Source: Candidatus Omnitrophota bacterium
Lineage (GTDB): Bacteria > Omnitrophota > Gorgyraeia > JAHJTE01
NCBI GenBank assembly: GCA_040753675.1
Contig: JBFMEB010000009.1
Location: 3,407 to 67,406 of the forward strand
Direction: 5' to 3'
Length of the DNA: 64,000 nt
Part shown: piece after piece, positions 2 through 60,480 of the stretch
Position numbering within the stretch: the first letter of the stretch is position 1
Layout of the letters: the number at the start of each line of letters is the position of its first letter
Notes under the pieces: model-generated
Told to the model about the DNA's origin: nothing
Seen by the model: the letters and a program-made list of their open reading frames with translations, nothing else
Database searches by the model: none
Position numbers and translations under genes: made by a program

Positions 2-870
2 GCATTTTCATTTGCCTCAAGTAGCAGGGCAGAGGAGATTGATGTTATTGTTAGAGTCCAGGATGATTTAAGAGATGATTTAGAGAGGATTCGTAATATT
101 CGCCTGGTAAATCGCGATGGCAATCTAATTTATTTAAGCCAATTTGCAAAAATAAATTATGAAAATCAATTTAACGAAGTTTATAGACAAGGTGGCAGAA
201 ATGCCATAAGCATTTTAATTGAACCTGATACTCGTCTGACTGATGAGAGAAGATTAAAAGCAGCAGTCAAAGAATTATGGGAGAAAGAAAAGTTAAATTA
301 CCGAGACCAAGATTTAAAATTTGGCGAGCTTGAACGAGAAGAAGATGAGGCAATGAAAAAGATTGGCTATAATTTTATTCTGGCAATAGTAGCCATTTGG
401 TTTATGACATTTTTAACTCTAAGAGCAAGTATTAGCCAGACATTTGTGGTGCTTTCAAGCATTATGTTCTCAACTTCTGGCGTTTTTGTTGCTTCTATTT
501 TGGTGGGTAGCCCATTTGAATTCTCTACTTTGGTGACAATTTTTGCTTTAGGTGGTTTAGTTGTCAACAATTCTTTGGTCTTACTTTATGAGATTAACCG
601 TTTAAGAGGCCAGGGATTAGAAAAAACTGCCTCAATATTAAATGCCAGCCAGTCAAGGATGAGGCCAATACTACTGACTTCGATAACCACATTGCTTGGA
701 TTCCTGCCTTTGGCAATAGGTATGAGCGGGAATATTCCTTTCTTTACTGCAATGGCTCAGGCCTTGACCTGGGGTTTAGGCATTGCTACTGCCTTAACCC
801 TCTTTATTACTCCTCTTCTTCAAGCAGTAGCTGATGATGTTATAGACTGGTTTACTCGGATTAGGAAAAG
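2..870 (+). other. Domain: RND (AcrB/HAE-type) efflux permease C-terminal half (periplasmic subdomain + TM7-12)
   Basis: The translated motif ...LLYEINRLRGQGLEKTASILNASQSRMRPILLTSITTLLGFLPLAIGMSGN... matches the conserved RND region (AcrB ...[21 protein letters not shown]...). Several TM helices flank it. Confidence 0.6.
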
Positions 871-15800: not shown

Positions 15801-18800
15801 TAATGCCTTCTGGCGGTGAAGTTGGTGAACCAGGGGGCTTGAGTAATTTAGAAGCTTTGGCAGCAGGCACACCTGTGATTGCCCATAATCAGGATGGCCT
15901 TAAAACTACAATTCACGATCCATATTTTGGCGATAGCGAGCCGATAAACGGTATAAAGTTTGAAGGCTTTAATGGTCCGGCATTGCTGGCGATACTTATT
16001 GAGGCAAAAAGAATTTATTTTGACGAGGTGCATAGCCGTACAGACAGACGAGGCAGGCCAATAAAGTATCGCACTATAAGTTTTAATGCCGCTAACACAG
16101 ATAGTCGCTGGATTAATCCCCTTAGAGAATATATTGGAATTTTTGAGAATATTATTTCAGGTAAAATTCCAGAGGATGTCCAGGCGATTGAGCTCTTGAG
16201 CGCACTTTCCAGTATACCCGAACAGGAAATCGCAGACGTAATAATAAAGAAAGGCTATAAGCCTTCCAAAGCAGCTGAGATTATTGTTTGGGCGTTATCT
16301 CATCCGATAAATATAGTGCGCAAAAAGGCAGCACAGATAATCTGGCATATGCACAGAGCTGGCGTACAGGATATGCGCAGACTCCTCGAACGAGTTGATA
16401 GATGGGCTAATGAATCGATTAAGCATTCAGCAGAAGTTCTCCTAAGAAGAATAGTTATGCTCGCTTTACTGGCTTTACCTATATTAGGCGCTGCTGGCGT
16501 TGATATAACTGGTATTTTTAGTATTGATTCTACTCCTTATTTGGTCCTTGTAGCTGCGGTATATAAGAGGGGCCATAAAAAGAGAGATAGCCGACATCAG
16601 GTTAGTAAGCACCGTGCAGTAGCTCAAATTCAACGAGATATACGAATCCTTAAACATAGCCAAGGCACCCGACAGGTTCATCGAAATTTAGTTAAAGATA
16701 TACTTAGCAGGCTTGAGTCAGGCAAGTTGGATTTCGATTTGATTAAAAAGTTAGATAATTTAATTTGGCTAAAACATTTGATAAGCGAGATTAGTTGCAA
16801 GAAGAAGTTCACAGAGGTATCTTTCGATTTGCATTTAGAATTACTTAACTTCTTGCTGGGCCTTGATGAGTTTAAGGAAAAACTTGCCAGAACAGTCGAA
16901 CACTTAATTACTGATAAGACAACTTCCCTTTTAGTTAGTCCTAATTTCAAAGCCGCAGCCGCGAGGGCGCTTGAGCAATTTAAAGCGCAAAAGGAAAATG
17001 GCAGTAGCGTTAACTTGCATCCTTTGGTTTTAATATTAGCTTTACTTATTAGTGTTGGTTTTGTCCTTCTAGCTCACAACTCACTACCGATAGCTCATAA
17101 CTTTTCTGCATTTATCCTCTTCGGTTTTATATTCTCTCCAAGCCACAATCCTCACTATAGGAGAGTCAAAGCAATAATCAGGAGAGATTCCATAGATTTT
17201 GAAGGAGAAATAACGATAGAAGAAAAATTTGGCCTGAGAATTAGCTTATCTTGCCTGAGAGATCTTTTACCTGAAAATGGAGAACTTAGAGTTTTGGTTA
17301 TTCATGAGAAAGATGGGCTTAATGTTTCTTCTGTTGGCTATCACAAACTCGCAGCTATATTATACGAACTTTCGAAGGTAAAAGAAAACATCGACCCGCT
17401 CACAACTTTTTTAATTAATGGTTTTAGCATATCTCCTGAGAAAAGTCTGTATCTACAAATTAGATTAGCTCAAATTTATCAGGAAAACTCATCTGTGGTT
17501 GCAGTTAAGTTGATATTCGCCCTCGATGAACAAAGTGAGGTTAGTATACTCAAAGGTGTAATAGATACAATTTCCACATTAGTTAATACAATTGTGCCGC
17601 CGGATTCTCAATCGCTGTTTCTTGAGAAGTTAAGTAAAAAATTACTTAGAAAATTATTCGATGGATTAACTATATTAGTCAGATCTCATCCTAATGAAGA
17701 TATAAGAGCCGAGGCCTTAATGTTGTTTACCGACATATATGTAATGCAGCAGTTAGTTAAAGCAATTGCAGAAGACAAAAGACACATTACAATATTGCCT
17801 TTTTCGTCAATAGAGTTGTTATCGCGGGCCTTAGGAGATGATAGTTATAGAGTTCGAGAAGTGGCGATAATAAGTTTAATTAAGTTAGGGATAAAGTATA
17901 ACCTGCCAGATGAATTAAGAATTCCGATTATTGAGTTATGCCTAAGGGAAGATATGTTAGATTTAGAAAGAGACAACTTAGGAATATTATTTAGCAACCT
18001 TGACTCTTTGGAAGCAGTTCTAATGTTAGAACGAGTTCTCGAGATAGAACTTTCATCGGAAAATCCAAGGCCAGAAAAGATATATTTCTACCTTAGGACG
18101 CTACAAGAATTGACTCCGGTAAGTTATTTTCTACTAAAAAGAATTCATAGCCAAAGACCTGAGCTTGAAATTAGCTTACCAGAAGATAATCCGGAAAAGG
18201 CTATAGGAGGAATAGTAGTTTTATTCGAAGATAGCGAGTCAGGAATTTTTTACAAACTCGTTACAGAACCGGAAAAACCACAGGATATTCAGAGTCTTGA
18301 GCTTAATTTAACTTCGGGGATAATTTTTAATGAGGCGCGCGGTTTAACTGATAGAGATAGAGTTAGGGCATTGGCTTGGTTAAATATTTTAGGCGCTAAT
18401 AAAGATACATTAAGAAAAATCCAGACAGAGGCAAAGATAAAAAGTGCAATCTGGTTTTTATCCGCAATTATAGTTTTGCTTGTGGCTTTCGGCTTTATCC
18501 ATCATCTAGTCCCGAATGTAGAAACTGCTTTAGCTATTCTTCGGGATCCCGAAGTTATTCTTAAGGGGGTAGCTTCATTCGGGATATCTTTCCTTCCATT
18601 TTTCTTTGGATTCATAAGATCGCCAAATGTTGTTCTGGAGAGAATACTACCTTCTTATCCCAAACGGGTTCTGGCAAAAATAACCAGAGAGGGTATTGCA
18701 TTTAAGGTTGAGGAGGGTAGAGAGCTAAGTCCAATAGATAAACGGAATTTAAGGGATAATTTATATTGTTTAATGAAGTGGTTAAAAGTTGGCAGTTACC

Positions 18801-21800
18801 TAGAAGTATGGGTAATTTACGATGACATTGTTAATTTGTCAGTTCCCGGACTTAGTAACTTAGGATGCGTATTAAATCATCTATTAGTGGTTCAGAAGAA
18901 TGAAGAACAAGTGGCAGGGTTTTTGATTAATGCTTTTATTGTTGCTGCCGGAGCCGAGGCCCTATTTATTAAGGAAGCATTGGTAAATGCTTATCGTAGA
19001 AATCCGCCGCTTATACAGAATCGTTTAATAAACTGTTTAGATAGCAGAGTGCATTCACAGATTGTTTCCGGGGCAATAGATGTAATAAGCCAGTTGCTTG
19101 ATAGGGAAGAACTAGAATTCCTCTGCAATGTAAAAGATAAATTGGGCTGGCTGATAGAAAATCATCCAAATGATTCTGTACGAATAGTTGCATTAGAACT
19201 TTGGACAAGTATAGATTTAATTTTAAAGCAAAAAGAAAATGAAGACGACAGTCCGAATAATAGTCTTGGCTTTGAACAAATTCAAATATTTGAAAAAGCG
19301 CTAAAGGACCAGAATTCAGGGCTTAAGAATATGGCATTACTAAGTATAAGGCGCTCAGGTTTTATGTTTAATATGCCTAAGGAATTAATCAAGCCAATCA
19401 TTGACTTGATAAGGGATCCTCCATACCAAGATGTTGAAGAGTTAGAAGCTTTTCTGTTGGCGATTGATAACATTGAGGCGGTTTATCTGGTTGTTGAGGC
19501 AATTGATAACTTAGAATATTTAAAGCTTCCTGCAGTAGATTTTCGCATGAGGACACTAGAGAGATTATGGCCAGTCAGTCATTTTGTTTTAAAGCGCCTT
19601 AAAAGTGAGAGGCCTGATTTGCCTCTTTATTTTAAAAGAGATGACCGAGAGGCAATTAAGGCAATAATAGGGTTACTTGAGTCAGAGGAGGGAGAGATAT
19701 TTGGCGAGGTACTTATAAATGAACCTGTAAGCCCTGAAGAGCTAAGGCATATTTTGATAGATAGGATTATCTTTGATAGCCAAACACTAATTTCTCATCA
19801 ACGTATAACTCCAAAAGCAACGAGAAGGGCATTAGCTACTTTAAGAATTTTAGGTGTTAGTAAAGGAGAATTGGAATCGATTATTAAATCAGTAGGACAT
19901 GGCCAGTCTTTGCTTTTATCAGCAAGCTTACCTCCTTTAGGACTTGTTGATTTTAGAGAAAGTATATTTGGCTACTTGGTTGCGTGGGGAATAATTACCT
20001 TAGCTACAGTTGTTTTTGCAATTTGGGTATACAGCATTATTTCTAAGAAACACAGATATTATAAACAGAAGAAAGAGCTTGAGAAAAAACGAGAAGACAA
20101 GATTTTATCTGCTTTTGTTCCAGACGAGGAATTAACCAACATCAGGAGAATACGGTTTAAAACTTTAAAGAAGCCGACAAATACTATTGCAGGAGAAATA
20201 AGTGGAATTGAGAAGTATTTAGCTTATATTCTGGTTCAGGCAAAGATTGTGGCAAGCATAGTTGAAAGACGCTCCTTCAATAAGTTGAATTTTGTTCCGC
20301 CTTACCTGTTAGAAAGAGCGGGTATTGTTGCAAGACAAGCTTTAGAGAAAGTAACGTCTCAGACTAATCAGACCGTTAGAATAACCAACGCTGTAGAAGA
20401 GCGGGAATTAGCTATGAGAGCCACTGCTTTATTTGAAGGAATGGTTATTGGTCAGGATAGGCTTGATCCTGGAACACATGTTGGGCTTGACGTTATTGAA
20501 TGTAGCGCTGGTTTAAATTCTTCAGTTAAGTTAGGATTATGCTCTCTGGGTATTTATTCAAGCTACTTTCCAGAACATGAGTTTCCAATGGAGCGTACCA
20601 GGGGCGCTGTTTATTATGAAAAATTCATATTGTCTCCGAGGCTCTGCAGAGGCCGTCCTAGCATAGATCTTTCCGGAGATTATAATAAAGTCCTTGAGGA
20701 ATTAGCCAGGGTTAAATATGAGGAGTCTTTGCCAAAGAGAATACTTGACCCAATATTTTCTCTTACCGGTGAAAAGTTTAAGCGAGTTGTAAAAAGTATT
20801 GTAGGTTGGTTTTGGCTTCCCGCAGATAAAATTATTTGGAGATTTATTAAAGTTGGGATGCTGGCAAGGCCTAGACATAAATCTCGATTTGACGAATTAG
20901 TCAGAAGAGGTGTGCCGGTAAAAGAGAAAGATTTCGAGCGCGCTTTAGAGATTGCCAGAGAAAGAGGCATATATAAAAATGGTAACATTATTTTAGTGGC
21001 AGAAGGAGATTGCACGCCCGCCCTAGATTTAGCCTTAGAAAGAGGGACAATAGATTGCTTTATTGGAGCTGGCAGGACGTTAGAAAGTGTATTTGCAGCG
21101 GCAGTGCTTAAATTTAATGGCGGTGAGATTTATACCATACCTGCATCTATTGCCGCGTTGAGCAGAAAAGAGGCAGATATCAATACAGACAGGGATAAAT
21201 TCAATACCACTGAGATAGCCGAAATGAAAAGAATCGGAATCGTTGAGCCGGGAACGGAAAAAGGCAAACAAGTCTCTTGGAATAAGACACGTTCAGCAGG
21301 AGATTTGTTTAAAGCTGATAAAGAAACATTGTTCTCATTCGGATTTATTGAGGATAATCCATGGGGTTTTAAAGGCGCGAAGATGGATTTAAGAACAGGC
21401 CTCATTACTGTTCCGGTTCTTTTTGGTGACGAGACTGGCGAAATAACTATTGCCTATATAAGTTTTGAGACTAACATAACCCAGGAAATCAATAATTTAA
21501 AAGTTGCCAAAGGAAAAGATAGATTTCTGCCAATGTTTCGCCTGGCACAATATTATTGTAAGCGCGGTCTTATTGAACAAGCAAGCATACTCTATGTGGG
21601 AATAAAAAGATTGGCCTCAAGGCATAAAAGCGGTTTTGGTGATTTAATAATTGCTTTGGAAGCATATATTACTGCAGTAAGAATAATAAAAATTGATAGT
21701 CCTGCGGATTATAAGAAACAAGAGGTTAAACGAAGAAGGTATAGAGGACAATATGATGCAGCCCTGCAGCAATTAAGAAAAGTTGCTAAGTATGATCCGG

Positions 21801-24800
21801 ATGATGACTTAGATTCAAGACAGCTTTTAATATCATTAATAAAATTTATTTCATTGTTTATTTTTGACCTCTCAATAAAACAGTTTAAAAATTTGGAAAT
21901 TAAGAGAAAGATAGAGGCCAGTCCCGAGGATATCAGAGAATCCAGGAGCCAAGCCAGGAAAATTAGTTTTAATACTGTTAAAGCACTAAATACCCTGCTT
22001 GAAATAGGAAAAGAATGCGGCCTGCCCCAGGCAGACATTGATTTAATAGAATTGCAAGTTAATGTAATTAAATTGCTTCGGAAAGCAAAAGATAGCCAGC
22101 AAAAATTTGCTACACTTGCTAATATTTTTGCAAAACTTCATGATAAATACAGAAGGATGCATCTAAATGATACTGCATATAAGATGTACGAAGAAGGTAT
22201 GCTTTATTGTCAGAGAGTTATTGATGATTATGGCGGCTCATTGCTTGTGAGTAGCGCAATGCAGATGGCAGAAATTCTTATGGACTCAGCGAGACATCCC
22301 GAAGCAATTGAATGGTTTTTAAATATTTTAGATAGGAAAAGAAGAGCAGGTTTAGTTGCTTTCAAAGGCAAAGAACCTGAGAAGGTGCTTGCAATTATGC
22401 CTGATGAGTTTGCTGCGAAAGAAGAAATTGTCTGGCCGCCATTATTAGAGAAAGCTGTAACTGGTTTAATAGATTCGGCAATAAGTTTGTTTGGATATGA
22501 TGATGTGGAGGCGATATGTAGCCGTTTAGAAGTGCTTTTCTTTAACGAAGATGCAGTTGTCCGCATGATTACTATCAAGGTTTTTGCAGAGAGGAAAAAT
22601 TTGATAAGTAGTCGAATCCTGATTCATTTCTTGGGAAATCCTCTATATATAGAGAAAATATTTGCGGATTTCGATTTGCCAGAATTTAGAGATCGCTTTA
22701 TTATTTATGACAAACGCGATGTTAATTATCCGGGTATTTTGAAGATTATCAAACGAACTGTTGCTACGAGAGCAGTGTTAAATGTTTTAAGGCGCTATCT
22801 TTTAATAGAAAATTTGCCTATAGTAAGGCAGACGTTGAAGATTTTCACGCGAGTTGGCTCAAAAGTTGATTTAGTTATCTTAAGAGAATTCATGGCGAGG
22901 CTAACGGCAAAACCAAGATGGTTAAAGACAGAAGAGAGAGATTCTTTGATAAGATTAATAGCTGGCAAGGGTCTAAAAAGCGGTGTTAAGCGTCGAATAA
23001 ATTCAAGAGCAAAATTCGCAGAAGAAATATTTAGTTTATTTTTAACTGCCGCTTTTAAGCCCAGGGCAGCAAGCGCAAATGTAGTATTAGGAGAAAATGA
23101 AACTGATGAAGAGCTAAAAAGATTGTGGCGTTGGGTAACTAAGATGTTTACTCTAAGTGGAATTAATACAAATAATATTTGTGCAGTTGAATTTGAATTA
23201 GGGTTAACCGATTATCAAATAGAGCGCGTATTTGATTCATTGAATTTAACGCTAATAAATGCAGCCATCAATCGGTTTAATGCGATGAAGGAATTGCCTG
23301 CAGAAATTCCAGTATATGATTTGACTGATGATATGTGCGTTAGTTTGATACCGATGTATGAGAGAGTGCCTCTTGAGCCGGATTTGACTTACAGTACCAT
23401 ATTTAAAATTAAAATTGGCAAACAGAAAGCAAAATTACAAACAACAGTTTTTTGTCTTGCTCCTTTGTTCTTTTTTAATTATTTTGCTTTCGACTATTGG
23501 CTATCAACCTTTATTTTTGGTTTGTTAATGTTTATATTAGCTAACACTAAGTTACTAGGTCCAAGTTGGTGGGAGTGCGACGCAGAATCAACCACAAATA
23601 AACCTGAGCAGAGACCGCCAACTCTGCAACCCAGAAAAGTTGGGCGCTTAACAGAGGCGGGCGATAAAGCGCCACAGCTAATAACAAGACCAGCTGTCAA
23701 CAAGGAAAAGTCAGCTTCAAGTACTGTTGGTAAAGATCAAAAACCTGATATAGGAATAGTTAGAGAGCGGCTAATAGAAGCGGTTAAGGCTTGGAAAAAA
23801 CAAAATAAAAAGCCAGTGATTAATGTTGAGGCTGCTGAAAGACTTTTAATTGGTATTTTAGAAGAATTGGGTTGGCGAGGAAAGATATCGAAAAATGTGT
23901 TTGAAGATTTGGTTATGAAGGTGGTATTTGAAAAACCTAAAGGCGGATTTCTTACATCGTTTATAATTTTAACTAGCATCTGGTATCTAGCATCCAGTAT
24001 CTCAGATCTTTTAGCCCTTAGCTCATTGTTCTTAGCTCCTAGCGCATTTTTATCCAGCATCCAGCATCCAGCATCTAGTATCTCAGATTTTCTAGCCCAT
24101 GGCTCACAGCCCATATCCCATAGCACCCTTGCCTTTTTGCCATTTATATTCGGCATGGCTGCTAAAAACGAAGATAATCCAGACGGTAAGAAGGACCAAT
24201 TAATAAATTTGTTGGTCGATAAAATTGGCATTTTAAATATCAAATTTACGCAAATTTTAGATTTATATCGCAATATCCCAGATGTATTAGAGCGTGCACT
24301 ACAACTGGACCTGGCTTCTTATATCATAGCTAATAAATTAGGCCTTGATGAACGACGTAAGAGAATATTAATAACTGCCTCGTTACTTTTACCTGTAGAC
24401 GACTTCGTAACTTTGAGTGGAGTCAAAGAAGTAATAAGCGAGACCCTAAAGGATGATGATATAAGAGAAGCAGTATCTATTCTTAATTTAAGCCATAAGG
24501 AGTTCAAAACAGGTAAACAAGGCATATTAGTCGCTACAGCAGGAGTTAATTTCGACTTAGTGATTTTACAGCAAGCTCTTTATGTATTAGATTCTCTTAT
24601 TTCACCTGAAGTTAGCGATATAGATAAGTTTCTTAAAGGGTTAGAGAAAAGGCTTCCAACAGGCGAGATTGATAAAGAGCTATTTAAAGCTGTCTTTAGT
24701 TTATGTAAAGATACCAGTAACAGATCAAAACGCTTCAGAAGCTTGTTAGATATTCCGCATATCACTTGTCATTTTGCTGCAGATGTGCCGCAAAAGATAA

Positions 24801-27800
24801 GGCCGAAAATCTCTGATGCCTTGAATAATTTAAGGGATGAAACAGGCGTTGGTAATTTCCATATTGAGTTTATTGGAGAGGGGATTAGTGATTATGTAGC
24901 TTCAGAAATTCATTCCCTACATCAGGCAGGCTTAGATATTGGCCAGAGTAACGAAGATTTAGTGAATTGGTTTGTTAACCGCTTTGGAGAGGAAGCAAGA
25001 GAAAAAGCGCAGAGAATGAGGAGAGATCAGCTTTTTGCTATTCAATGCCGTACTGCTGTAGTTGATACGATGCATAATGCCATACTGGCAAGGCAAGTTC
25101 AACGTTATATTATAGGTTATTCAATTGATGTACAGCCTCTAGCTAAAATTTTAACTATTAAAACCTCCAAAGAAAAGCAGATTGAGATAGACATAGCTGA
25201 TGTGCCGCAAGCACTCAAACCGACTGATTTACAAATTCAAGATGCTGTTACCAGGCATTTTAAATATTTAATAACCAGATGGCAGGAATTAAATCCTAAA
25301 AGTCCTCTTACCATTAATATAAGAGCGCTTTTCTTCAGGCAGGCATATACTCACTATGCAGCAAAACTTAATCGTCTGCGCGGCTCGCCCCTCGATACCC
25401 TTTGGCCCTCTTTTTACGCTGCCTGCGTTATTTATCCTGCCATAAGACAAAAAACACTTGAGTTAATTGACCTTTTCAAGCAAATATCCCAATTATCTAA
25501 CGAAAAACAAATAGACGACGTTATTAGCGGATTCATCTCAACTCTTACTTTAAAACGTCCGCTTACAGAGAAAATAATCTACGAGCATATCCGTAGGGCA
25601 ATCAATCCCAACTGGCAAAAGAAACCCAAACAAAAATCATCTCTTAGGCTTCCTGCGCAAGGCGAACTTTTCGGCGTCTCTATTCTTATGATTGGATTAG
25701 GCCTTGCCTTAGTTTACAATCTAATACATTCAGGGACAAATCCAGAAGTATTTGCTGCTGGTTTTGTCTTTCTTGCAAAGTCTGACAATCTGAAATCTAA
25801 ATTGGTAGAAAAATTAGAGAGGTGGAAAGATACAAACCTAGGCGGGACAATTTTAAATAGGCCATTATTGTTGGTAGGCGCAGTTATGAAATTACTTGCT
25901 GCTAATTCTTCAGTATTTTTGGCAATAATTATTTATAACACGTATTTTACCAACGAACCCTTATCAGACTTTAAACAAATTTTCTATCCTTCGGTTATTA
26001 TGTTATCTTTATTGGTTATGGAATCATTTGAGCCAGTGCAACATTTAATTTTTCCAAAATTTGCCAAACTTTTCTATCCTAATCTCTTTTACTTTAGCAT
26101 TAGTAATTGGATGGCAAGAATTTTGGGAGCAGAAATTCAAAAGGTTCAGAGAAACACTAAGACTGTTGAGGATCTCGATGACTTAGCATTAATTGACGAA
26201 ATTAAATTAAGACATTCGGTTAGATTTTTAAATACACAAAGATTCTTACCAAAGCATATTGTCAGATCAAAATTATCTAAGATACGGGAACTGATCATTG
26301 AGGTAATTGGCATTCTTATCGGAAGTGCCATCTTAAGTTTAGTGGCATTTTCTCTTGTATGGGTGATGGAGTCTAGAGAATCATTGATAGATACTTTTGG
26401 ATACCTATATTTTACGCCACTAGTTTTATTATTCGTAATTATTATATTTAATCTGGGCAATTTCGGTATCCATTTTATCTTTTATCATTTCCATCTTCTT
26501 TATGATGAAGGAAAGATTTTTGTAGGTGCACAGACTATAAATACAAATATTGATCCACGCTTGGTTACTAGGACAGGAGAAGAGACGTCTGAGGATGAAT
26601 TAAGAGGATTATTAGTAAGGTGGCTTTATAGTGTAGACGTAAAGCGCTCTTTAATTACAAGCTTGGATCATCTGATCAGTATACTTCAGGCCAAGGTTGA
26701 AAAATTCGGTGGGAGAAAAATCGGCCGGTTGGTTTTGTATGGGCACGGGGCTACGGGGACTTTTACATTTAATAATGAATTTTATCTTTGCCTATCTAAT
26801 ATGGATGATTTGGATGTGGTAGCTAAACTAAGTAAGATAGGCGAATTCCTTGTAGAAGGGGCAACTGTCGTAATTAGCAGTTGTTATGTCGGAGAAGGCA
26901 AGCGCGGCGATAGATTTATGATTGCTTTTGCTAGAAGAGTCTTTGGCAGTAAAAGAGGCGCATTGATTACCTATTCAGATTCTAATATGTGGCAGGGTAA
27001 AAGATATGAGTATGAGCCTTCTTATTTAGCCGTACCTAAAATTCAAGAGGTGGTTATCCATCGCATCGGACTTCTAGGCTACAAGACAACTCCTTTGGAA
27101 CAAAGGAATTTAGCAATAAGTCCACAGCATGATAGGGTAGTGCAGGAGATTCGAGGCCGGACAATAAGAGACATGCTTACTAGAGGGTTGTCGGTGATCT
27201 TACTTATGTTTGGGGGTTTATCTTTCATTTCTTCAATCCTTTGGCCACAGGCAAGCCTTGCCCCGCCGCTTTTAGCTCATAGCTCGTCGCTCATAGCTCA
27301 TAGCCCGCTTTTATCTAGCATCCAGCATCCAGCATCTAGTATTCAGTATCTGGCATCCAGTTTTCCGTTCCTCATCCCTGCCTCGCCGGCAGATGGATTA
27401 TCGGCCATAAGCTGTGGGCTGATTGCTGGCTTTATAGGTTCGATTTTCCAAAATCAACAGGCACAGTTTGCTACTATAAAAAGAGGCGATGGTTCTATTG
27501 AAGAATGGGAAAGAGGAAAATTAGTTCGAGCACGGGTGCCTTATCGGGGAGAATATCTTGAAATTGTCCGCGTCTCTAAAAGGCATCCGGATTCTTATGA
27601 AATTTGGTTTGCCGGCAAGCGTATAGATGAGGATTTGCCTTATGGATTTGCTTTTAAAGAAAGATTTGATTTTAGGAGAGGGCGCATTTTGGAAGTTGGA
27701 GCTCTATTCCTAAAACCCGATTATCGTAATAATGGCGTAGGTTTTGTGTTGGTTAAATGGCTCGCTCAACATGCGGCAGAAAGGGGCATAACAACACTTA

Positions 27801-30800: not shown

Positions 30801-33800
30801 ATGAGTTTTTAGCCGTGGAAAGTAGTTACGGCGCTCGCCGCGCAGTGTCAATGTCAGAATTAAAAGAAAAACTGATTACTTCAAAAATCCTTATCTTGCC
30901 ATTGGGAAGTAAAGATTCTGAACTAGAAAAAATATTAGGCACTCGCCTTACTTACGTTTATATTTCCCCGGTCAGTGAAGACCAATTACGAGATGCAGAG
31001 TTTATTAGAAAAGAACTTAAATTTAGGCATAATATGCGGCAAACATCGCCAGATGAGAATGTTGAAGAGCGCATTAGGACCGGCATTGAAATACTCGCTA
31101 AAATAACACCTGACGATGCGGTTATCTATAATCTAAGAGATAAGCAAGAAGATGCTTACAAACAACTTAAGGCAACTCTTGGCAGCCGCCTGCCAAATTT
31201 CCCGCCACTACGCTCTACATCTAATAATATTCATCTTCTCGGAGGCAAAGCAGCAGAAAAGGAGTTGGCTGTGGTTGCTTTGGGTGGGAATGATTTCAGG
31301 AAAGAAGGCCAATCGCGCGAGACTTTAGGTGATGGTATTGACCAGGCTGAACAAGAGAATATTAGAGAACGAGCAATAACTATGGTCGATTTATTGACTG
31401 ATTACCGGCTTGCATTCGTACATGGGAACGGTCCCCAGTCAGGCGATTTCTTAAATAAAGCAGCTAAGAGCGAATACGAAGCTGTAAGGAATTTGACGAG
31501 TGTCGAAGCAAATGCCAATACACAATTTGACTTGGGCAGAAAGATAAGAAATGCCTTAGTTAACGAATCAGAGAGAAGAAACCTCGCCTTAAAGGATAAA
31601 GTCCGCTTTTTACTTACTTATGTAGAAGTATCCCAGGAGAGTTTAGCTAAAGAACCCACAAAGCCAATCGGGCCTTGGTTGACTTTGGTTGAAAAACAAG
31701 AAGCAGAGCAACAACATACAGATAGAGTTTATGCACAGAAGCGGCAATCTGAAAATGGCAAAACTTGGCGTTGGCTAGTGCTATCTCCTGAACCTGTTGA
31801 TATACCAATGTCCGATAACATTAAAGCTATGATAGATGAAGGAATGATTCCAATTTGCTGCGGAGGCGGCGGCATACCTGTAGTCAGAATCGGTAAAAAT
31901 TTAGTTAAACCAGTGCAGGGAGTTATTGATAAGGATTTAGCAGCACAAAAATTAGCAGAGAAAGTCGGCTCTAAAATATTAATTATTCTTACTAATGTGC
32001 CATCTGCATTTATTAATTTTGGCAAACCGGAACAGGAACCTTTAGGAGAAATTACTGTTTCGCAAGCAAAGGCATATATGGCTAAAGGTTATTTTGGCGT
32101 AGGCAGCATGTTTGAGAAAGTCAAGGCAGGAGTTCTGCATATTGAGGCAGGTGGAAGAATTGCCATCATCACTGATATTGATCACGTAGAAGATGCTCTG
32201 GCTGGCAAAGCCGGCACGCGTATAGTTGCGGATAAAAAATCCCAATCCGGCACCATAATCTTAAAGACTCTTTTATTACTTTTTGGTATTAGTCTTGTAG
32301 GAATTGTTATTACATTTAGTTTGGGCCACGCTTGTGCGATTGTCCCTATGTTTTTATTAGGGGTGAACATAAAAAATAGGCGCTCCAGCCAGAAATCAAG
32401 AAGGCATACGGCTATACTTGCAAGCAGTAAAAATTCAGATGACATAGGATCAATTCACGAAGTTATTCGTAGCTTATTTAAGGAAGTGGTACCTCAGCTT
32501 AAGTCTTTGAGACAGTCAAGAAAAGCATATGAACAAATTTTAAGAATTTTACGTAATAAACTTTCAGGACGTTCTAGAGAGCTTATATTAAAAATAAGAG
32601 AAGCCTTGAAACATCTATTCATCTTTTATCCAGTTAGAAAAAGAAACTTTTTGAGCCTTGAATTTACTTTATTTATTCTTCTAAGTGTCCTAAAACAATC
32701 AAAAAATAATAATATAGCAAAGGCTAAAGTGACAGATGCGCTAAAGGGCTATTTGCAGTACCTCCAAGGTTATATCCTTCGTTTAGCTCCTCAAGATAAC
32801 TCTGTAATAGTTAGTTTCTTTAGTCCGAGAGGACCGATAGATGCAGGCAGTGAAGTAGAAGAGGCATTGAGATTCAAAACCTATAGCCCAAAGCCCATAA
32901 CCAAGGACACTATTGTTTTAACTCCAGACGGAGAATTCTCTTTTAGTTTAGTGTCGAATTGCACAGAAAACTGGTTCGAATTATTCTCTGCCATAAGAGA
33001 AATTAATATTAGCACTGGTAAAGAGCGCTGGAACAAAAAACAGCATAAGACACTGCGTTTTATTTGTCGTAAATGGCTTATGATGCCTCAAATCAAGATA
33101 TTCGTTGCAAGGAATGCTCAAGGTAAAATTATTGGTTACTTGATATTTCTCGATTCTGATAAAGCTTTGCGTAAAGGATGCCTTGTTCGATATATAGCGT
33201 ATTCTGGTGTCTATCCAGATTATCAGCATAAAGGAATTGGCATTGCCCTACTTAGAGCATTGGTTAATTATGCCAAAAATAAAGGCCTTAGAGATTTACG
33301 TTGTTACACAAGCGCAGACCCAGCGAGTAGCTTTAGCCAAATAGACTTTTTGCGCAAGACTGCCATTAGGTTAAACATAGAAATCAAAGAAGAGCTTATT
33401 AAGCCAGATGACGAGTATTACAGATACCCTGATGGAAGTAAAATATTAAAAGTCACCCTCGGTTCAATTCAATCTAAAGTTTATACGATTGGGACTGGCC
33501 GAAGACGCATGAGCTTATTATTTGGAAGACTTAGGCCTCTATTAGCTGACTATAGGAGCTTGTCTGCATATCAGCCTCAAGCCATAAAAGGCCTTGATAG
33601 ATTTCATTTATTAAAAATTCCTAAGTGCAATTTATCTGTTTCGCCGCCGATTACGGGATTAGAGTTTCAGCCGCTTGAAGGCTTACATCGGATAGTTAAA
33701 GGTTCTTATCATATCTCTTACGAAGAAATGGGTTGGGGAGCATTAACTGATAATGATGTAATCAGCACTTATCCTTTTGGTAATTGCTTGGCAATTGCCT

Positions 33801-36800
33801 TCCAGGGCAAAAAAGATGGCCAAACCATAACAGGTTTAGCCCATATTAACGAGAGGGTTTGGCTAACTAATGAAAATTACTGGGCAGTTAAATCTTTGAT
33901 TACATATCTAAGAGACGATTTAAAATTGCAGGCAATAAGATTATTTTTACAAGGCAACAGCCAAGATACTACTAAATTGCTTACCTTAGAAGAGGAGATG
34001 GCCACAGAGCAGGATATAGAAATATTTGTGTTGCCAGGAAGAATTTACCCTCTTTATAAAAACCACATAACACACCTGTTGGTTACAAGCTTTGCCTGTC
34101 TTTTTGTTACTGCCGGTGTGCCTTTGTGTCTATTCTGGGATAGTTCAAGCAGGCAAATAGAGAAGGAAATAGAAAAGTATAAGAAAGCATTAGAGTTGGC
34201 GCCGAAGGTGCTTAATCGCGAACATCCACAAGGTGAGCTCGGCGGTGTTTCACAAGCTTCTCAACCTTCGGGCAATAACCTTAACCGAATTCCTTTCGAA
34301 GGCTTTACCTGCCTTTATACTAAGGATGGGTTTATAGATTCTATAGTTGATAGCAAAGGCCAGTTATGGGCAGAGTATGAATATTATCCTCGAGAGCGGC
34401 AGAGAGATTTATTTAGGAGTATTAGGTTAAAGAATATTTTTGGAGCAGATGATAGTGATATATTTTTAAAGCCTTCGATATGCGATGAGGAAGAAAGAGT
34501 CCAGAGATTTTCAATTGTTCTTGGAAATAAAACTATAGGACTTGTTACATATAGAATAGACAAAAAACAGCATACTATTGAGATTTTGGCCTTCTCAATT
34601 TTAGAAGAGTATAAAGACATATCAATTATTGAGACAGTATTAAACTGGTTGGCAATGGAGGCAGCGAGAACCAAGCTGAGAGTGCAACTGTCTTTAGAGG
34701 ATGCTTTCTTAATAAGAATTGCCAGACGCTTTATTAGCGCTAAAGGCTGGCCTATACCAAAGACCTTCGTTTCCAGAGAGGTAAATGTAAGGAATTTGCT
34801 TATTAAATACAGTCGCTTCCTGTCTGATTCAACTTCTCGCATGCGAAGACGCTTAAGTTCTCAAGATATACATGAGGCGAGATCAATAATTTATGAGTTG
34901 TTGCAAATAGAGGAGCTTTACAGAAGAGGACTTAGGTTAGAAGCCATTGATGTTTTTGTTCCAACGCAGTCAGGGGAGTTAGAAATAGATGCGTTTGTAA
35001 GAAGCGCAGAAGATGAAATATACATGGTTGAAATTTTTAATTTGAGTTGGCACCACAATTTAAGACATAAATTATTTCATATATTTATTAGACATAGAGA
35101 AGATATTGAAAGATATTCAAAAGATAAATTTGGCCGTAGTCCCAAAGGATTTATTCTCTTGGTTTTTAGTAGCCATAATGAGGCGATTAATAGCGCTGAG
35201 ATAGAGAGGAGAATTCGTAGCATAGAATGTGTTCCAGAAGGATATATAGAATTAATAATTACACAGCCAAATGCCCACCAGTATTTACCTGATAATGAAA
35301 GTCTGAAAATAGCAGTTGAATCAGTGATTGGGTCATCTAATGCAGGAAATTTGCAAGGAGCAAGACAAATTTTAAGTGCTGTATTTCCTTTAGCGTTTTT
35401 TGGCTTAAGCATTAATTTGTCAACCTTAGGCATAATCGCCTTAAGTGCAATTTTGATTTATTTTATTCTTAGTGCCTCAACAAAAACTAAAAATACCATC
35501 AATGCCAGTTTAAAAAAGCCAATTGATAATCATTCAAAGAGAATTATTGTAAGGCATCTAAACGAAGGTATTGAGGCCTTGGACCGATTAGTTGGACAAA
35601 GATTGAAAGCCAGCTCGCAAGATGAATGCTTGGTTGTGGTAATCACTGGCAAAAGCGGGGCTGGCAAGACCACTCTAGGAAAAGTTATCGCAAAACGCGG
35701 TATAGGAGAGATACGAGCCGACAATGTTGAAGTTATAGCTGCAGATAGATTTTTGGCATTTTGGGCATTAGAAGATACAATAAAGCCAAAGGCATTCTTA
35801 AGAGTGTTTAATCGTGTTTTAAAAACAAAAAAAGTAATAATAGTAGACGGCATATTTAGTTATCGTCTATTTGAGGACATCCGTGGTATTGATTTAATAG
35901 ATATTCACGTCCTCCTCGAAACCCATGAAAGAATCAGGCAAAACAGATTAAAAGAGCGCGATGGAAAAAAGTACGACCCGAATAAAGGTTTAAGTGAATT
36001 TTCAAGACAGCATAGAGAATTGCCGAATTTGGTTGGCAGAGATTTAATCGTAATTAACGATGAACATGTTGATATAGAAGCATTAGTTAGCCAGAGGTGT
36101 CATGTTATGCGCCAGACCTCATTCAATAAAGGGATGGCCGGCAAGCAATTAAGCAAAAATATAAATGAATTATCGCTATCAGAGATTATTAAGAGATTGC
36201 GTTTAGCAGACAAATACTTCGAGATTGATGGGGTCAGCAAAGAAGATGAGATTTTAGTTGCTGAGGTTTTAGAAGAGCTTATTCAGCAGGGCTTGGCAGG
36301 TGCCAGGGATGTAGAGATAATAAACATCTATAACAATTTATATTCTGCAGAGCCATTTTTTGCAGCGCGCAGAGATAAAGAACTCTACTTAGGCATCAGT
36401 ATTTTTACGAATAGAAGACTTAACCGAGAGCAAAAGAAGGGTTTATTGAAAGTGTTTATATATGAAGAGATTTTATCTAAAAAATATTTATCTAAAGATT
36501 CTTCGGCTCGGAGCCAACAACTTTTATTAGAAAAAATACTTGTTTTATATAGGTTGATTCAGGCGCTTTCTAAAAATAGGCGTACTGATAAGCAATTATT
36601 TGATTTGCACTTATTTTTGACTGGTCTTATGCGATTTCCACAAGTTACACAGGAGCAGATCGCGGCATTTGAACGGCTCGTTGATACCTTTAGTCATAGT
36701 GAACATATTGACACTGCGTTAAAAGCAATAATTAGTTATATAAGAGATTATTATCCAGATTTGGATGTGCGAAGAGCTGCCTCTTTAAGAGGCAATTCTT

Positions 36801-39800
36801 TGTTAAAGGCGAGGACAATCCTTCTTGATGAAGACTTGATGGCAATGTATGAGGATAGAGAGCTTTCAGAACATGCCAGACAAGAACTTCTTGTTTTATC
36901 AAAGTCAAAAGAGACTGTTAAGCAACTTATCAGCACAATGTTAGAGCGCCATAAAGGTGATAAGGAAAGATTAGTATCTGTTGGCATAGCTATTGCTAAC
37001 TCTCTTTCTTATAGCGCTGCACTTTATGCAAGAGTTACCCAAAGACTAATGGAGATATCTCGGGATAATGGTGAATCAGCAGGGTTAGCCATTGAGATCT
37101 TAAAAGGTATTGGAGTTTTAGAAAACAGGATTACCAGTTTTGAAGAGACAAGAGAATTGATAGACAAACAAGTAAGCAGTGTAGATCCAAGCAGTCTGAG
37201 ATTTCCGGCATTTGTAGCAGAAATTCTATGCCCGGTTCGAGGGTTGCAATGTGTATACGATAAACCAAGGAGGAATTATAGCGCAGTTATGGTTCCACAC
37301 TTTTTACGTGATACAAAGGGGCCGGTTATGGTTAGGATAGACTGTTATTTTGACTCAAAATTAGGTTATTATGTCTTCAGATGGCAGAACGTACAGGGCA
37401 AAAAGAAAGAATATGTTTATTATCGAATTGTTAGTGATTCGATTGGGTTTGAACTATTCTTGCCTCAGTTTCCTAATTTAAAAGGTAATAAACATGAGAT
37501 TGCTGAACAAATTTCTAGTCAGGACCTAAATTCTAAGCAGTTTGGCGACAGGGAATATATTTTGCCAGCTAAGGATAGAGGGCTACTTACGTTCAACATA
37601 AATATAGGCAAGCGCTCTGTGACAGCTTGTATGGCAACAGGCGACATGAAAAGGGGAGTCGTAAAATTAAGAGTAATTCTTATCGAAGAGTTAGTATGTT
37701 ATTTATTCTTCCCAGTTCATAAAAGATATTCAAGTCATCAAATCCGAGACTATGAAAAAGAAGGCTTCCCCAGCATTTCTCGCGTTAAGCAGAATCCTTC
37801 TGATTATTTGTTACCGGTTAGCTTTGAGGAAATTGGGAATGCCGATCTTGAGCACTGGAGAATGGACAAGCCAATAATCTTTAAGAAAATCAGAGAAAAA
37901 TATCAGCGCGGCAAGCTTGCTCAAACACTTGGCGCATTTTCGGGAATGATAAAACCAGTAGAGATGCAGATTAATGAATATTTTGAGAGATACGGGAAGG
38001 CATTTGAAGAACTGCAAATGAGTCAGCATAATTTAACAAGTCCGAATGAGGCATTTTCTGGAATTTACAGAGAATTGGCTTCTTTGGGTATAATCCAGCT
38101 ATATTTACATAGACTAATTAATGATTATGATGTGGAATTTGGTATTGCACTGCAGGAAGTCAACCAAAACTTAGCATTAGTTGGCAATAGCTTACGTCTA
38201 TTAAAGCATAAAATAGATGATAAGCGGCAAATCGTCCAAGACGCAGAGTATCAAGTTTATGCCTTTAAGAACCGGCTCGGAATTAAACCCAAGTTTAGAA
38301 GAAAGAGTGGAAAAAGAACTAGGCCCGATGAGAGAAAACAAAAACAGGATGCGTTAGCTGCAGCGCAATTCATTATTAGGCTTATCGAATTTATTAAATT
38401 AGGCAGAATATTTAAACTTGGTAAAATAGTCACTGGTTTTGAAGAGCTGATTGCTCAAAGTGTAAGAAATGGTATAAAAACAGAAGAGGATTCAAATAGA
38501 TTAAAGACATTAACTACAACATTGCTTTGCTGGCTTTCGCCTTTAATCATTGGCTACTATACAAGAAGCATACCAATTATGGTTGGATTATTGGAAAAGA
38601 TTTCGCAGATAGAAGAAAGAGATTTTAGTGAGGTTATTAGGAGAGGGCAGGACATACTTTTAAACTTAGAGCAGATTAGGCCTTATTGTCGTCAGGTAGA
38701 ACTTTTAAAGCAAGCTTTAGATGAGTCATTAAAATGGTTCAAAGAGGTAGATAGATTAATTTCTGAAGCTTTAAAAAATTTACAAAATAAAATTAGAGGC
38801 AGATTAAGACAGCTTAATAGGAATAGCAAAGATTTGATTAAAAAAGCGCAAGACATATTCGGGATGCCCTTAAATACATTTGCCGAGAAAGAGAATTTTC
38901 TGAATTTAGCTTCAGATTGGTTAGAAGATTTTGAAATAGAAATTACTAAAAATAGATTAGGAGGCCTAACCAGAAAAAAAGGAGCGGCATCTTCCTTCCT
39001 TGATTCTCCATTTTTGCCGTTACTTTTTCTTGGTTTAGGCTTAGCAGGTTTTGGCGCATTTTATCTTTACAATTTACTATTCGGTTCCCAGGCCACTCTT
39101 GCTCCACCGGAATTAATATCACAAGCCATAACTCATCTGTCACATGTTCTAGTATCGAGTATCGAGCATCTAGTATCTATCATCTCCAATTTCCTTTCCA
39201 CCAACTACCAACTACCAACTACAAACTACTTCTTTTTGCCTTTTATCTTCGGCTCCATCTTCAGTCTCTACGATGGACTTAAAGATGATGAGCAGCCAGA
39301 TTTATTTAAAACCATAGAGGAATTATTACCATTTGCCAGGAATAGTTTTCATCCAGAAATCATAAATAAATTCCAGGAACTTTTTAATAAGGCAATAAGA
39401 AAAGCAAGGACTAATGCTGATGTAGCCTTGGCACTATCTGTAATATTAGAGGATTTATTACAACATCCGGGCAGTGGTTGTCTTAAAAACTTCTCTATAA
39501 GAACCTTAAGAATTTTGCATTCTTACTGGCCTGATATTGTCAGCGAGGCAAAGATGGCGGAGGTCTCTATTTCTAAGGCTTCATTTGAAGAAAGGCGTAG
39601 TAACCTTGAAAGAGAGTTTATAACATTTGTTAATCCCGCTAATGGGGAGGTTTTAGAGTTTAAGCATCCAAAATCAGGACAGGTTCAGAGATTTTGGCAA
39701 GGAAAGCGTGACCGTTTATTTTTCTATAAGATTCTAACAAGTCTATTATTAACAAACGGACAACTTATGGTTGAGGGCATAGAGTCTATAGGTGATGGCA

Positions 39801-56407: not shown

Positions 56408-56914
56408 CCTTATAGAACTTATCTATAATTAAACCCTAAATTCAAAACTCTAAACTCTAAATAAACTCAAATGTCCAAAACCCCAAATTCAAAACCATAT
56501 GATTTAGGAGCCAGGACCCTTAAATTTGCTAAAAGAGTAAGGGATTATGTAAAAGCTTTACCAAAGACATTGGCTAACATAGAAGATGCTAAGCAGCTTA
56601 TTAAAGCTTCTGGTTCAGTTGGTGCCAATTATATAGAAGCTGAAGAGGCTTTGAGTAAAAAAGATTTTATAATGAGAATAAAAATTTCAAGAAAAGAGGC
56701 AAAAGAAAGCAGATACTGGTTAGAATTAACCGAGCACAGAGAAGATCAGAAGAGTGAGCAGGAGGCTTTAATTAATGAAGCGGTAGAATTAACAAAAATT
56801 TTTGGTTCAATAGTTGAACGATCCAAATAATTCTTTTGAGTTTTAGATTTTGCGTTTTGTATTTGTTTAGGATTTAGGTTTAGGATTTAGAGTTTATATT
56901 TAAAAAGAATAGAT
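56408..56914. mobile_element. Inverted-repeat-bounded cassette carrying the four-helix-bundle gene (IVS/MITE-like)
   Basis: The left arm 56415-56470 (aaaccctaaattcaaaactctaaactctaaat...) is nearly the reverse complement of the right arm 56845-56900 (...atttaggtttaggatttagagttta). A miniature ORF-less copy lies at 60297-60480. Confidence 0.5.
56471..56830 (+). CDS. Four-helix-bundle protein (23S rRNA intervening-sequence protein family, TIGR02436/PF05635-like)
   Basis: DLGARTLKFAKRVRDYVKALPKT ... GSVGANYIEAEEALSKKDFIMRIKISRKEAKESRYWLELT matches the family pattern (..IGANIAEG...S.KDF..KL.IA.KEA.ET.YWL.L). Flanked by long inverted repeats. Confidence 0.7.
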   Translation: MSKTPNSKPYDLGARTLKFAKRVRDYVKALPKTLANIEDAKQLIKASGSVGANYIEAEEALSKKDFIMRIKISRKEAKESRYWLELTEHREDQKSEQEALINEAVELTKIFGSIVERSK

Positions 56915-60296: not shown

Positions 60297-60480
60297 ATTA
60301 CATAAATTTATATAAACTCTAAACACTAAATTCTAAATCCTAAATAAATCCAAAATTCAAAACATAAAACTCAAAACCTCATTTGACCTCTCAGGCATAA
60401 AATGTCTTCATACGCTTTTGGATTTTAGGTTTTGGACATTTGAGTTTGTTTAGAGTTTAGGGTTTCGGATTTAGGGTTTC
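60297..60480. repeat. Miniature ORF-less inverted copy of the four-helix-bundle cassette (both IR arms + 5' gene remnant)
   Basis: 60297-60350 matches the reverse complement of the cassette's right arm. 60425-60480 matches the reverse complement of its left arm. The middle retains the reverse complement of tcaaATGtccaaaacc, i.e. the MSKT start of the gene, then a stop. Confidence 0.55.

Follow-up and report, generated by a model that had tools for sequence, protein, structure and literature searches.

Inside a giant open reading frame (ORF) of a Candidatus Omnitrophota bacterium, hydrophobic tracts recur that are built of the same short DNA words as the beginning of a downstream gene for a secreted GH2-like hydrolase. 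The ORF lies in a stretch of 64,000 nucleotides from contig JBFMEB010000009.1 of a metagenome-assembled genome (MAG), referred to below as the window (G+C = 38%). The tracts are best explained, with a probability of about 75%, as heptanucleotide simple-sequence repeats (SSRs), a phenomenon of the DNA kept in genes only where the protein tolerates it, and not as evidence for a shared leader peptide. A preliminary description of the window had seen in them signal-peptide-type leaders marking the starts of modules or, alternatively, recombination-prone junction elements.

According to the preferred explanation, 7-nt units would arise and homogenise head-to-tail in the DNA, with replication slippage and local copying as the most plausible mechanisms. 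Arrays of this kind would be endemic in this lineage, intergenic spacers included, and would survive within genes only where almost any moderately hydrophobic or flexible peptide can be accommodated. Signal peptides, a variable surface loop of a GH94 phosphorylase and the giant-ORF segments between a transmembrane (TM) helix and a FLPFIFG-type stretch would be such tolerant spots. Selection would act as a filter, holding the net length in frame and exchanging an in-frame TAG for CAG, TGG or GAG.

Period-7 arrays and the DNA shared between them

A periodicity scan of the window revealed 11 arrays with a period of 7 nt, compared with 0-2 at the other periods between 4 and 15 and none in shuffled sequences. 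A looser threshold gave 14 period-7 arrays and at most two at any other period. Tandem Repeats Finder (TRF) together with a register view resolved 3.4-7 units per array at positions 24052, 27273, 27313, 39148, 39200, 62212 and 62268. The word AGCATCYAG was matched nine times in the window, every time on the + strand (1.05 matches expected), and GAGTATCGAG seven times with at most one mismatch (1.7 expected). With the same tolerance, GCTCATAGC showed no window-wide enrichment (21 matches, 15.4 expected). The arrays were found in intergenic DNA, in a conserved enzyme gene and in the giant ORF, with at least eight different units, and the process behind them is therefore generic and not bound to a peptide. 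Four intergenic arrays lay within 51.5-62.2 kb, and the 51-kb giant ORF contained only four array sites, the decayed one at J1 aside.

The proposal that four tracts of the giant ORF consist of recurring 7-9-nt words held for 23973-24121, 27273-27361 and 39148-39229, all of which are period-7 arrays. The fourth, 17065-17160, preserves a decayed trace with one 10-nt match to 27293-27302 (E=0.26). The peptides quoted for the tracts proved correct on checking. Word order was also shared, beyond generic low complexity. Segment 24048-24081 (J2b) was identical to 27309-27342 (J3) at 33 of 34 positions, the non-repeat flank TTTTAT included, and 62275-62296 agreed with 23973-23994 at 21 of 22 positions, with the TGG variant in the matching place. 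A reverse-complement alignment joined 62210-62238 to 39179-39151 (27/29). Because the order of variants and even the flanks are shared, the copies at 24048, 27309, 23973, 39148 and 62210/62275 appear to be related by copying, presumably through duplication of the junction, gene conversion or recombination.

Translation of the repeat accounts for the similarity of the peptides. In any entry frame (CTAGCAT)n reads L-A-S-S-I-stop-H; the 7-nt unit passes through all three frames every 21 nt. In all arrays of this unit and its variant CCAGCAT (family A), the unit whose TAG would fall in frame carries CAG, TGG or GAG at that position, and out-of-frame units often retain TAG. Such stop repair in (CTAGCAT/CCAGCAT)n produces the peptide [LP]ASSI[QWE][HY]. 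The peptide ASSIW[HY]LASS, put forward as a sign of a common leader, is shared because the repeat DNA is shared and is simply its automatic translation. The arrays at 39148-39185 and 62212-62243 are one array coding on opposite strands, and their peptides, VSSIEHLVS and RYSILDTRYSI, are unrelated, which makes the DNA repeat, and not the peptide, the unit of inheritance. Judged from the sequence, the shared peptide is thus no evidence for a common leader function. That a giant protein and a signal peptide contain identical peptides is here no sign of shared targeting, and a tempting misreading is removed.

Table 1. Arrays and junction features of the window, with their repeat units and encoded peptides.
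Feature	Position	Strand	Description
J1	17070..17104	+	decayed family-B array (TAGCTCA CAACTCA CTACCGA TAGCTCA), LAHNSLPIAHN; weak evidence
J1b	18428..18615	+	paralogous junction: TM helix, ~20-aa loop, FLPFFFG; no heptamer array
J2a	23973..24002	+	family A: CTAGCAT CTGGTAT CTAGCAT CCAGTAT, encodes SIWYLASSI
J2b	24048..24084	+	family A: ATCCAGC x3.4 plus variants, encodes LSSIQHPASSI
J2, degenerate period-7 segment	24095..24121	+	GCCCATG GCTCACA GCCCATA TCCCAT (B-like), encodes AHGSQPISH
FLPFIFG hydrophobic segment after J2	24134..24154	+	DNA 20/22 identical to 39232-39253
J3, family-B array	27273..27304	+	TAGCTCA x4.6, encodes LAHSSSLIAHS
J3, family-A array	27308..27361	+	7 units, encodes LSSIQHPASSIQYLASS
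J4, first array	39148..39185	+	TCTAGTA/TCGAGTA x5.4, encodes LVSSIEHLVSII
J4, second array	39200..39229	+	ACCAACT x4.3, encodes TNYQLPTTNY; immediately 5' of FLPFIFG (39233-39253)
Further in-frame array	47001..47031	+	CAGATGG x4.4, encodes SDGRLEMADGS; polar, non-hydrophobic stretch of the giant ORF
GH94 array	54188..54224	+	AAGCAGA x5.4, inside the GH94 phosphorylase gene
Signal-peptide-coding region, GH2-like gene	62199..62306	+	MKIRR...SHA/EV, 36 codons
Leader array 1	62212..62243	+	perfect GATACTC x4.6, encodes RYSILDTRYSI, between n- and h-regions; codons 5-16
Leader array 2	62268..62300	+	family A, CTAGCAT x4.7, encodes LASSIWHLASS, end of h-region and c-region; codons 24-34

Low complexity arising by chance, or faulty assembly around repeats, was considered as a source of the arrays. 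The contig of the window was assembled from a metagenome, breaks at arrays are seen in related contigs (one, L142, starts within an array, and many of the metagenome matches listed lie at contig ends), and an assembler might in principle be misled by a 34-nt direct repeat whose copies are near-identical. Against this stand the absence of period-7 arrays from shuffles (0, with 11 in the window), the 51-kb frame which is open across every tract, the recurrence of both leader arrays of the GH2-like gene in an independent assembly and the presence of arrays inside at least 120 independent contigs. As a general explanation it is essentially refuted and deserves next to no credence; a local rearrangement between the two near-identical copies, within 23.9-27.4 kb, would be conceivable. 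The breaking of contigs at arrays nevertheless calls for caution when these MAGs are assembled and their genes called, as an error of +/-7 nt would split the giant ORF.

No tandem copy of the named heptamer units TAACTGA, CCCCAGT, TTGGTCA and CAACAGT (the last three from the short tandemly repeated repetitive sequences, STRR), GGGAATC or GGACCGG occurred in the window, and Rfam gave no match within it. The coding tracts had no RNA structure beyond that of shuffles (z = -0.17, +1.51, +0.01 and +0.48), and readings of them as hairpins, attenuators or elements like the Rickettsia palindromic elements were dropped for that reason. RNA structure between the two leader arrays of the GH2-like gene was no better than in shuffles either. 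Binding of an RNA-binding protein like HutP or TRAP to spaced UAG triplets (UAG plus a 4-nt spacer gives a period of 7) was set aside because most copies elsewhere read CAG and their orientation to genes is mixed.

Arrays in signal peptides and in related loci

The array at 62205-62300 had been described as intergenic. It is coding instead and makes up codons 5-34 of the GH2-like gene, whose ATG at 62199 is annotated in the source record (P0001) and kept in three orthologues (four loci with the window). The protein is 100% identical to P0001, a protein of a Candidatus Omnitrophota MAG. The accompanying statement that DNA of this type encodes part of a genuine signal peptide was borne out for 62199-62306. 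By inspection, the leader is N-terminal and has a basic n-region, a hydrophobic h-region and small residues at -3/-1, as a Sec signal peptide should; here and below, statements on signal peptides and TM helices rest on hydropathy, inspection and patterns in orthologues. Its plan is MKIRR, array 1, IIYLLTFF, array 2 and SHA/EV, with IIYLLTFFLLASSIW in the middle, and a signal peptide of 36 residues is plausible. In array 2, the single unit with a would-be in-frame TAG reads TGG. Orthologues follow the same plan and end in FAQE, FAEE or similar.

The repeat unit itself turns over between orthologues. With its place in the GH2 signal peptide unchanged, it is CTAGCAT in the window and in locus L135 (90% identity to the window protein), TTGTCAT in L142 (80%), TGGACCA in L134 (74%) and CTATCAG in L136 (73%). 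In L135, which is an independent assembly, both leader arrays have the same length as in the window. Leader array 1 is there a 14-mer repeat, (GATACTGGATACTC)n, in place of the perfect (GATACTC)n of the window, and this difference at equal length suggests homogenisation within arrays. Among the leaders of 111 GH2 orthologues, residue identity at lag 7 was 15.2%, compared with 5.6-10.6% at the other lags between 1 and 15. The mature parts of the same proteins gave 6.5% at lag 7 and no period signal.

In related Omnitrophota loci, signal-peptide-coding regions are likewise the characteristic place of the arrays. In eight of them (L134-L141), 17 of 24 period-7 arrays fell within codons 1-40 of genes whose products have evident signal peptides, a count biased by the choice of several loci for their periodic GH2 leaders, which leaves the eight non-GH2 leader arrays unaffected. 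The genes concerned encode GH2 proteins, the substrate-binding protein (SBP) and two unnamed families (x2 and x3). The remaining arrays lay beside stop codons (6/24) or at a C-terminus (1/24), and none was found deep within a gene. In L140, the unit CTTACAG (encoding LTAYSLQ) was present in two different signal peptides, much as family A is used repeatedly in the window. A weak period-14/7 repeat at 56933-56959 (TTGTTTATCATTGT x1.9) was also present in the window's own SBP gene, within its lipoprotein-type leader (MKRLSTLFIIVCFSLSLIGC), and fits the pattern of leader arrays in the SBP genes of L138 and L139.

A layout of this kind is also what contingency switches would show. In a phase-variation system, gain or loss of one 7-nt unit would shift the frame and so switch secreted proteins, the GH2-like protein and the SBP among them, and in the giant gene truncation just past a membrane junction would create a population of differing giant-protein lengths. 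The length of the unit is not divisible by 3, perfect repeats extend to 4.6 units at codons 5-16 of the GH2-like gene, the arrays of relatives concentrate near the 5' end of genes for secreted or surface proteins (SBP, x2 and x3 too) in the classical contingency arrangement, and a shift of +/-7 nt leads to a stop in 2-45 codons at every array. Members of the Omnitrophota are, moreover, host-associated or predatory (10.1101/2023.11.21.568195). Yet copy numbers are low (3-7), most internal arrays are broken by point variants that damp slippage, and the window and its 90% relative L135 are identical in length at both leader arrays. All orthologues seen were in frame, in a sample biased by having been found through protein search. 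Active switching at these arrays is accordingly considered rather unlikely.

The GH94 phosphorylase gene offers a different setting for an array. Its array corresponds exactly to an insertion of 7 aa (21 nt) in a variable loop, as judged by comparison with the closest orthologue, in L134, and with PDB 3qde. The length of this loop varies across Omnitrophota, with no insertion in L134, +7 aa in the window, +9 in L138 and ~+17 aa in L139; the insertions of L138 and L139 are of unrelated sequence.

The arrays are not confined to close relatives. A metagenome scan with three family-A units identified at least 120 contigs carrying (CCAGCAT)n/(CTAGCAT)n (L014-L133). Among the matches listed, the G+C of the contigs ranged from 32 to 68%, and the copies were mostly located in intergenic or short-ORF DNA or adjoining gene ends, some of them being in frame in linkers, TM loops and lipoprotein leaders. 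The loci among these matches contained 286 period-7 arrays, compared with 35, 17 and 11 arrays at periods 8, 9 and 6, while a total of 163 kb of control loci had one. Again among the matches listed, ACTCGAT arrays (the same unit as GATACTC) often stood a few tens of nt from family A (L015, L024, L027 and L070), which is the pairing seen at 62212-62300.

Junctions inside the giant ORF

The giant ORF (2..51550, + strand) is a single frame open from base 2 of the window; it is incomplete at the 5' end and hence longer than 17,180 aa. The window cuts into it within an AcrB-like C-terminal TM domain, and the ORF extends further upstream. Further Pfam matches were GFO/IDH/MocA, phosphorylase, APH, glycogen synthase (Glyco_transf_5)/GT1, FBPase_glpX, two GNATs, guanylate kinase, amino-acid kinase, AAA, EamA, nucleotidyltransferase and LysM+YkuD, families that are normally independent. 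A weak HEAT_2 match was found at aa 5775-5846. A Kyte-Doolittle scan revealed dozens of hydrophobic TM-like segments. With more than 10,000 aa, many TM helices and metabolic and carbohydrate enzyme domains, the product is an Omnitrophota-type giant membrane multi-enzyme protein. The SecA_DEAD helicase domain is said to be present in most giant genes. Neither it nor a C39 domain was among the Pfam matches over the 17,065 aa in the window, a result that is not decisive, the N-terminal part being outside the window.

Few relatives of the giant ORF were retrieved. The C-terminal 2965 aa used as a query gave two proteins only, P0122 and P0121, the latter 49% identical across the EamA part, and a word-indexed search found no relatives of aa 7780-8380. 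An exhaustive HMMER search with aa 12330-13529 returned no match and missed even the protein itself, very long proteins apparently not being covered, so that this null does not show the region to be an orphan. A scan of genome contigs for giant-gene relatives gave just generic amino-acid-kinase matches (33-38% identity).

At three of the four array sites, a strong TM helix is followed by the tract and then by a short hydrophobic segment of the FLPFIFG type. J1 directly follows the strong TM helix at aa 5550-5581. J2 includes an 81-nt internal duplication covering J2a and J2b (23989-24017 vs 24070-24098, 26/29), and J2a contributes to a borderline-hydrophobic segment. At J3 the family-A array is preceded by the TM helix at aa 8944-8966 and QASLAPP, and followed by FPFLIP and another hydrophobic segment. 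The loops of the junctions range from ~14 to ~50 aa, and five junctions could be aligned over the TM/loop/FLPFIFG core only. The flanks A(S/T)LAPP, FLPFIFG and DG.KDD, which had been regarded as conserved around all tracts, are not general. Each was found at two sites: [ST]LAPP at aa 8968 and 12915, FLPFIFG at aa 7928 and 12961 (an array-free FLPFFFG stands at aa 6080), and DG.K[DE][DEQ] likewise twice. A 178-aa ORF on the opposite strand (23737-24273) overlaps the J2 tract and is most likely a by-product of stop-poor repeat sequence and no gene.

A module of ~430 aa is duplicated in the giant ORF (aa 5589-6023 vs 6084-6510, nt ~17117-19882; 30-36% identity, E to 1e-25), and a TM/FLPF-type junction precedes each copy, the second being adjoined by J1b (aa 6026-6088). 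Such duplications were detected by BLAST of chunks of the ORF; whole-length self-BLAST gave the identity match alone.

The position of the tracts invites the idea that they are functional modules, with the segment acting as an internal signal-anchor or hairpin leader that inserts enzyme modules, or marking a processing site, and with the repeats serving as raw material. The tracts always adjoin strong TM helices between enzyme-type modules, the family-A arrays of the giant ORF are always oriented to yield a Ser/Ala/Leu/Ile-rich peptide, and the J2 array itself adds to the hydrophobic segment. In this phylum, real signal peptides are encoded in part by the same arrays. At J3 and J4 the TM helix is followed by Q-A-[ST]-L-A, which is similar to a signal-peptidase c-region, and giant Omnitrophota proteins have ~1 TM helix per 370 aa (10.64898/2026.06.07.730766). 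Several observations do not fit. The paralogous junction at aa 6026-6088 works without an array, the loops differ in length and the units differ as well (A, B, A' and D), the array at 47001-47031 lies in a polar context, and P0121/L137, a giant-protein fragment of 4346 aa from the phylum, has no arrays. Pro-Pro after an A-x-A motif normally blocks signal peptidase I, and it is Pro-Pro that follows the A-x-A-like motif at J3 and J4, which precedes the tract instead of following it. A dedicated function of the tract peptides seems, on balance, doubtful.

The internal tracts (aa 5570-12960) are, furthermore, not N-terminal, and no basic n-region stands directly before them, which sets them apart from N-terminal Sec signal peptides. 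The suggestion of signal-peptide-type leaders at module starts is consequently partly right: leaders of this lineage typically carry arrays, and those of the giant ORF lie at hydrophobic membrane junctions, while nothing in the evidence shows the internal tracts to act as leaders.

Another way to connect the two settings is to regard the tracts as fossil gene boundaries. The giant gene would then have grown by fusion of neighbours, and each tract would represent a former spacer together with the leader of the following gene, its array included, both now translated as part of the giant protein. This would agree with the arrays of relatives, which lie almost only beside stops and in the first 40 codons of secreted-protein genes, with the stringing together of normally independent enzyme families, and with the variation in size of orthologous giants (>10,000 to 69,710 aa), which implies accretion. 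Loss of the stop at 62191, which is followed by the ATG at 62199 and the arrays, would turn the boundary between the MFS transporter and GH2-like genes into such a junction. On the other hand, Q-A-[ST]-L-A-P-P is common to J3 and J4, and FLPFIFG is common to J2 and J4 even in DNA (20/22), which points to a junction cassette duplicated within the gene and not to independent gene boundaries. No consistent relic start codon or Shine-Dalgarno pattern was present, and no relative split at these points was found in searches that retrieved no full-length giant orthologue. An origin of the tracts as gene boundaries is improbable.

The alternative of recombination-prone junctions is physically plausible because two 33/34-identical direct copies (24048 and 27309) lie 3261 nt, exactly 1087 codons, apart. 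Homologous recombination between them would allow deletion or duplication of a module in frame.

Some observations weigh against the SSR explanation preferred here. The rare context shared by three of the four array sites in the giant ORF is more specific than any tolerant spot, and it could reflect a function of the junction or common descent of a duplicated junction. In the GH2 leader, the position of the array is kept while the unit changes, which mutation plus a filter does not specifically predict. The only close pair, the window and L135, has equal array lengths and no slippage is visible.

In a bolder proposal, the arrays would form a built-in variation system of Omnitrophota, with frameshift switches in leaders and near-identical in-frame repeats at giant-gene junctions, such as 24048-24081 and 27309-27342, for deletion, duplication and truncation of modules. 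It is a speculative idea with few odds in its favour. If true, it would explain how giant genes reach, and vary between, 10,000 and 150,000 codons. Slippage or recombination of the arrays in vivo would provide a simple mechanism to switch secreted enzymes and remodel giant genes, with a bearing on the origin and size variation of the latter.

Downstream of the giant ORF, the window encodes a PilZ protein (436 aa), the GH94 phosphorylase, a small 23S_rRNA_IVP protein, an ABC sugar-uptake system, an MFS transporter and the GH2-like hydrolase. No entry exactly matching the PilZ protein was found, probably owing to a difference in the annotated start. The order of giant gene, PilZ, GH94, SBP, permeases, (MFS) and GH2 recurs in other Omnitrophota contigs, where the syntenic giant genes encode >10,268, >7,428, 24,677 and 69,710 aa. 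The C-terminal ~80 aa of the giant protein are only weakly similar between the window and L134.

The intergenic arrays of this genome are inverted pairs, in contrast to the coding arrays. The permease-MFS spacer (60314-60478) holds two inverted degenerate arrays, (TAAAYYC)n and (GRRTTTA)n, which pair as one long imperfect hairpin (-48.2 kcal/mol, z = -4.9, 0/200 shuffles as good). The 119-aa ORF at 56471-56830 belongs to the 23S_rRNA_IVP/four-helix-bundle family (PF05635, E=3e-14) and is enclosed by a long-range stem of inverted degenerate arrays, (TAAACTC)n at 56430-56465 and (GTTTAGG/GAGTTTA)n at 56860-56897, present in minimum-free-energy and centroid structures (z = -2.4). In L138, an IVP gene between GH94 and SBP is likewise flanked by inverted arrays, of another unit (GCTATAT). 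The layout of an IVP ORF within inverted arrays resembles an rRNA intervening sequence. At the 3' end of the MFS transporter gene (62087-62188), an 18/33-nt tandem repeat encodes a highly charged tail (RRGERRVEEERRREERRVEEERRVEEERREEERRE), and similar repeats occupy the matching place in L134, L135 and L136.

Comparison with known repeat systems

The host gene resembles the giants of Omnitrophota named 'Archaeovorins', in which many TM helices stand amid carbohydrate and central-metabolism domains including FBPase (10.1101/2023.11.21.568195; 10.64898/2026.06.07.730766). Like them, it comes from an Omnitrophota MAG, exceeds 17,000 aa and has carbohydrate-degradation neighbours. No mention of tandem or heptamer repeats within giant genes was found in 10.1101/2023.11.21.568195 or in the available part of 10.64898/2026.06.07.730766, and no description of a richness of Omnitrophota genomes in heptamer arrays was found in the literature searched. 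Apparently new are the phylum, the occurrence of many different units side by side in a single genome, the concentration of arrays in signal-peptide-coding DNA, where the position is fixed and the unit turns over rapidly, and the near-identical copies at the membrane junctions of a giant gene.

The tracts share with Rickettsia palindromic elements and cyanobacterial small dispersed repeats the in-frame location at tolerant positions, the occurrence of the same element in unrelated genes and an added peptide without evident function. Those elements are 20-150 bp long, palindromic and thought to be mobile, and lie in frame within genes. Unlike these elements, the tracts are tandem and have neither hairpin potential nor defined ends.

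In Neisseria opa genes, changes in the length of a pentamer array of 7-28 copies, with proven hypervariability, switch the frame of a surface or secreted protein. The CTCTT repeats of opa and the GH2 leader arrays both have a unit that is not a multiple of 3, lie in the hydrophobic core of the signal peptide and are hydrophobic in all frames. The opa leader-peptide repeats were reportedly treated as a contingency locus by Stern in 1986 and by Lin and Kussell in 2012 (both as cited in PMC4692102). The arrays described here differ in being heptamers of 3-7 copies, often interrupted, and equal in length in the one close pair.

An over-representation of heptamers among SSRs is said to have been noticed in 2007. 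Heptamer SSRs have been described in bacteria and are poorly understood; now and then they occur within ORFs, in peripheral parts of the protein (PMC4679880, PMC2700814, PMC4692102). As in the window, period 7 is over-represented among the long SSRs of Calothrix (STRR), Xanthomonas and Nostoc (GGGAATC; PMC4692102) and Geobacter (heptanucleotide elements; PMC2700814). STRR and heptameric SSRs, like the present arrays, lie within ~50 bp of gene ends and turn over in length and sequence between related genomes, and intragenic copies are known from Geobacter too (PMC2700814). Enrichment of these SSRs in signal-peptide-coding DNA was not described in the literature searched. Unlike them, the arrays here are not G-rich and have no quadruplex potential.

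The closest parallel in form is given by the TAACTGA arrays of Beggiatoaceae, cyanobacteria and Bacteroidetes (MacGregor 2015, PMC4679880). They consist of tandem 7-nt units in 2-6+ copies at many loci per genome, are mostly intergenic near start or stop codons with some copies in ORFs at tolerant peripheral positions, and have a forward unit with stops in all frames, all of which applies to the arrays analysed here. A peptide with a period of 7 residues arises in both, LSVISYQ from TAACTGA arrays (PMC4679880) and LSAISYQ in the orthologue P0005. The arrays of Omnitrophota, a different phylum, have other units, many of which coexist in one genome, and whereas TAACTGA arrays stand just upstream of start codons (PMC4679880), those described here are frequently coding, in signal peptides and at the junctions of a giant gene.

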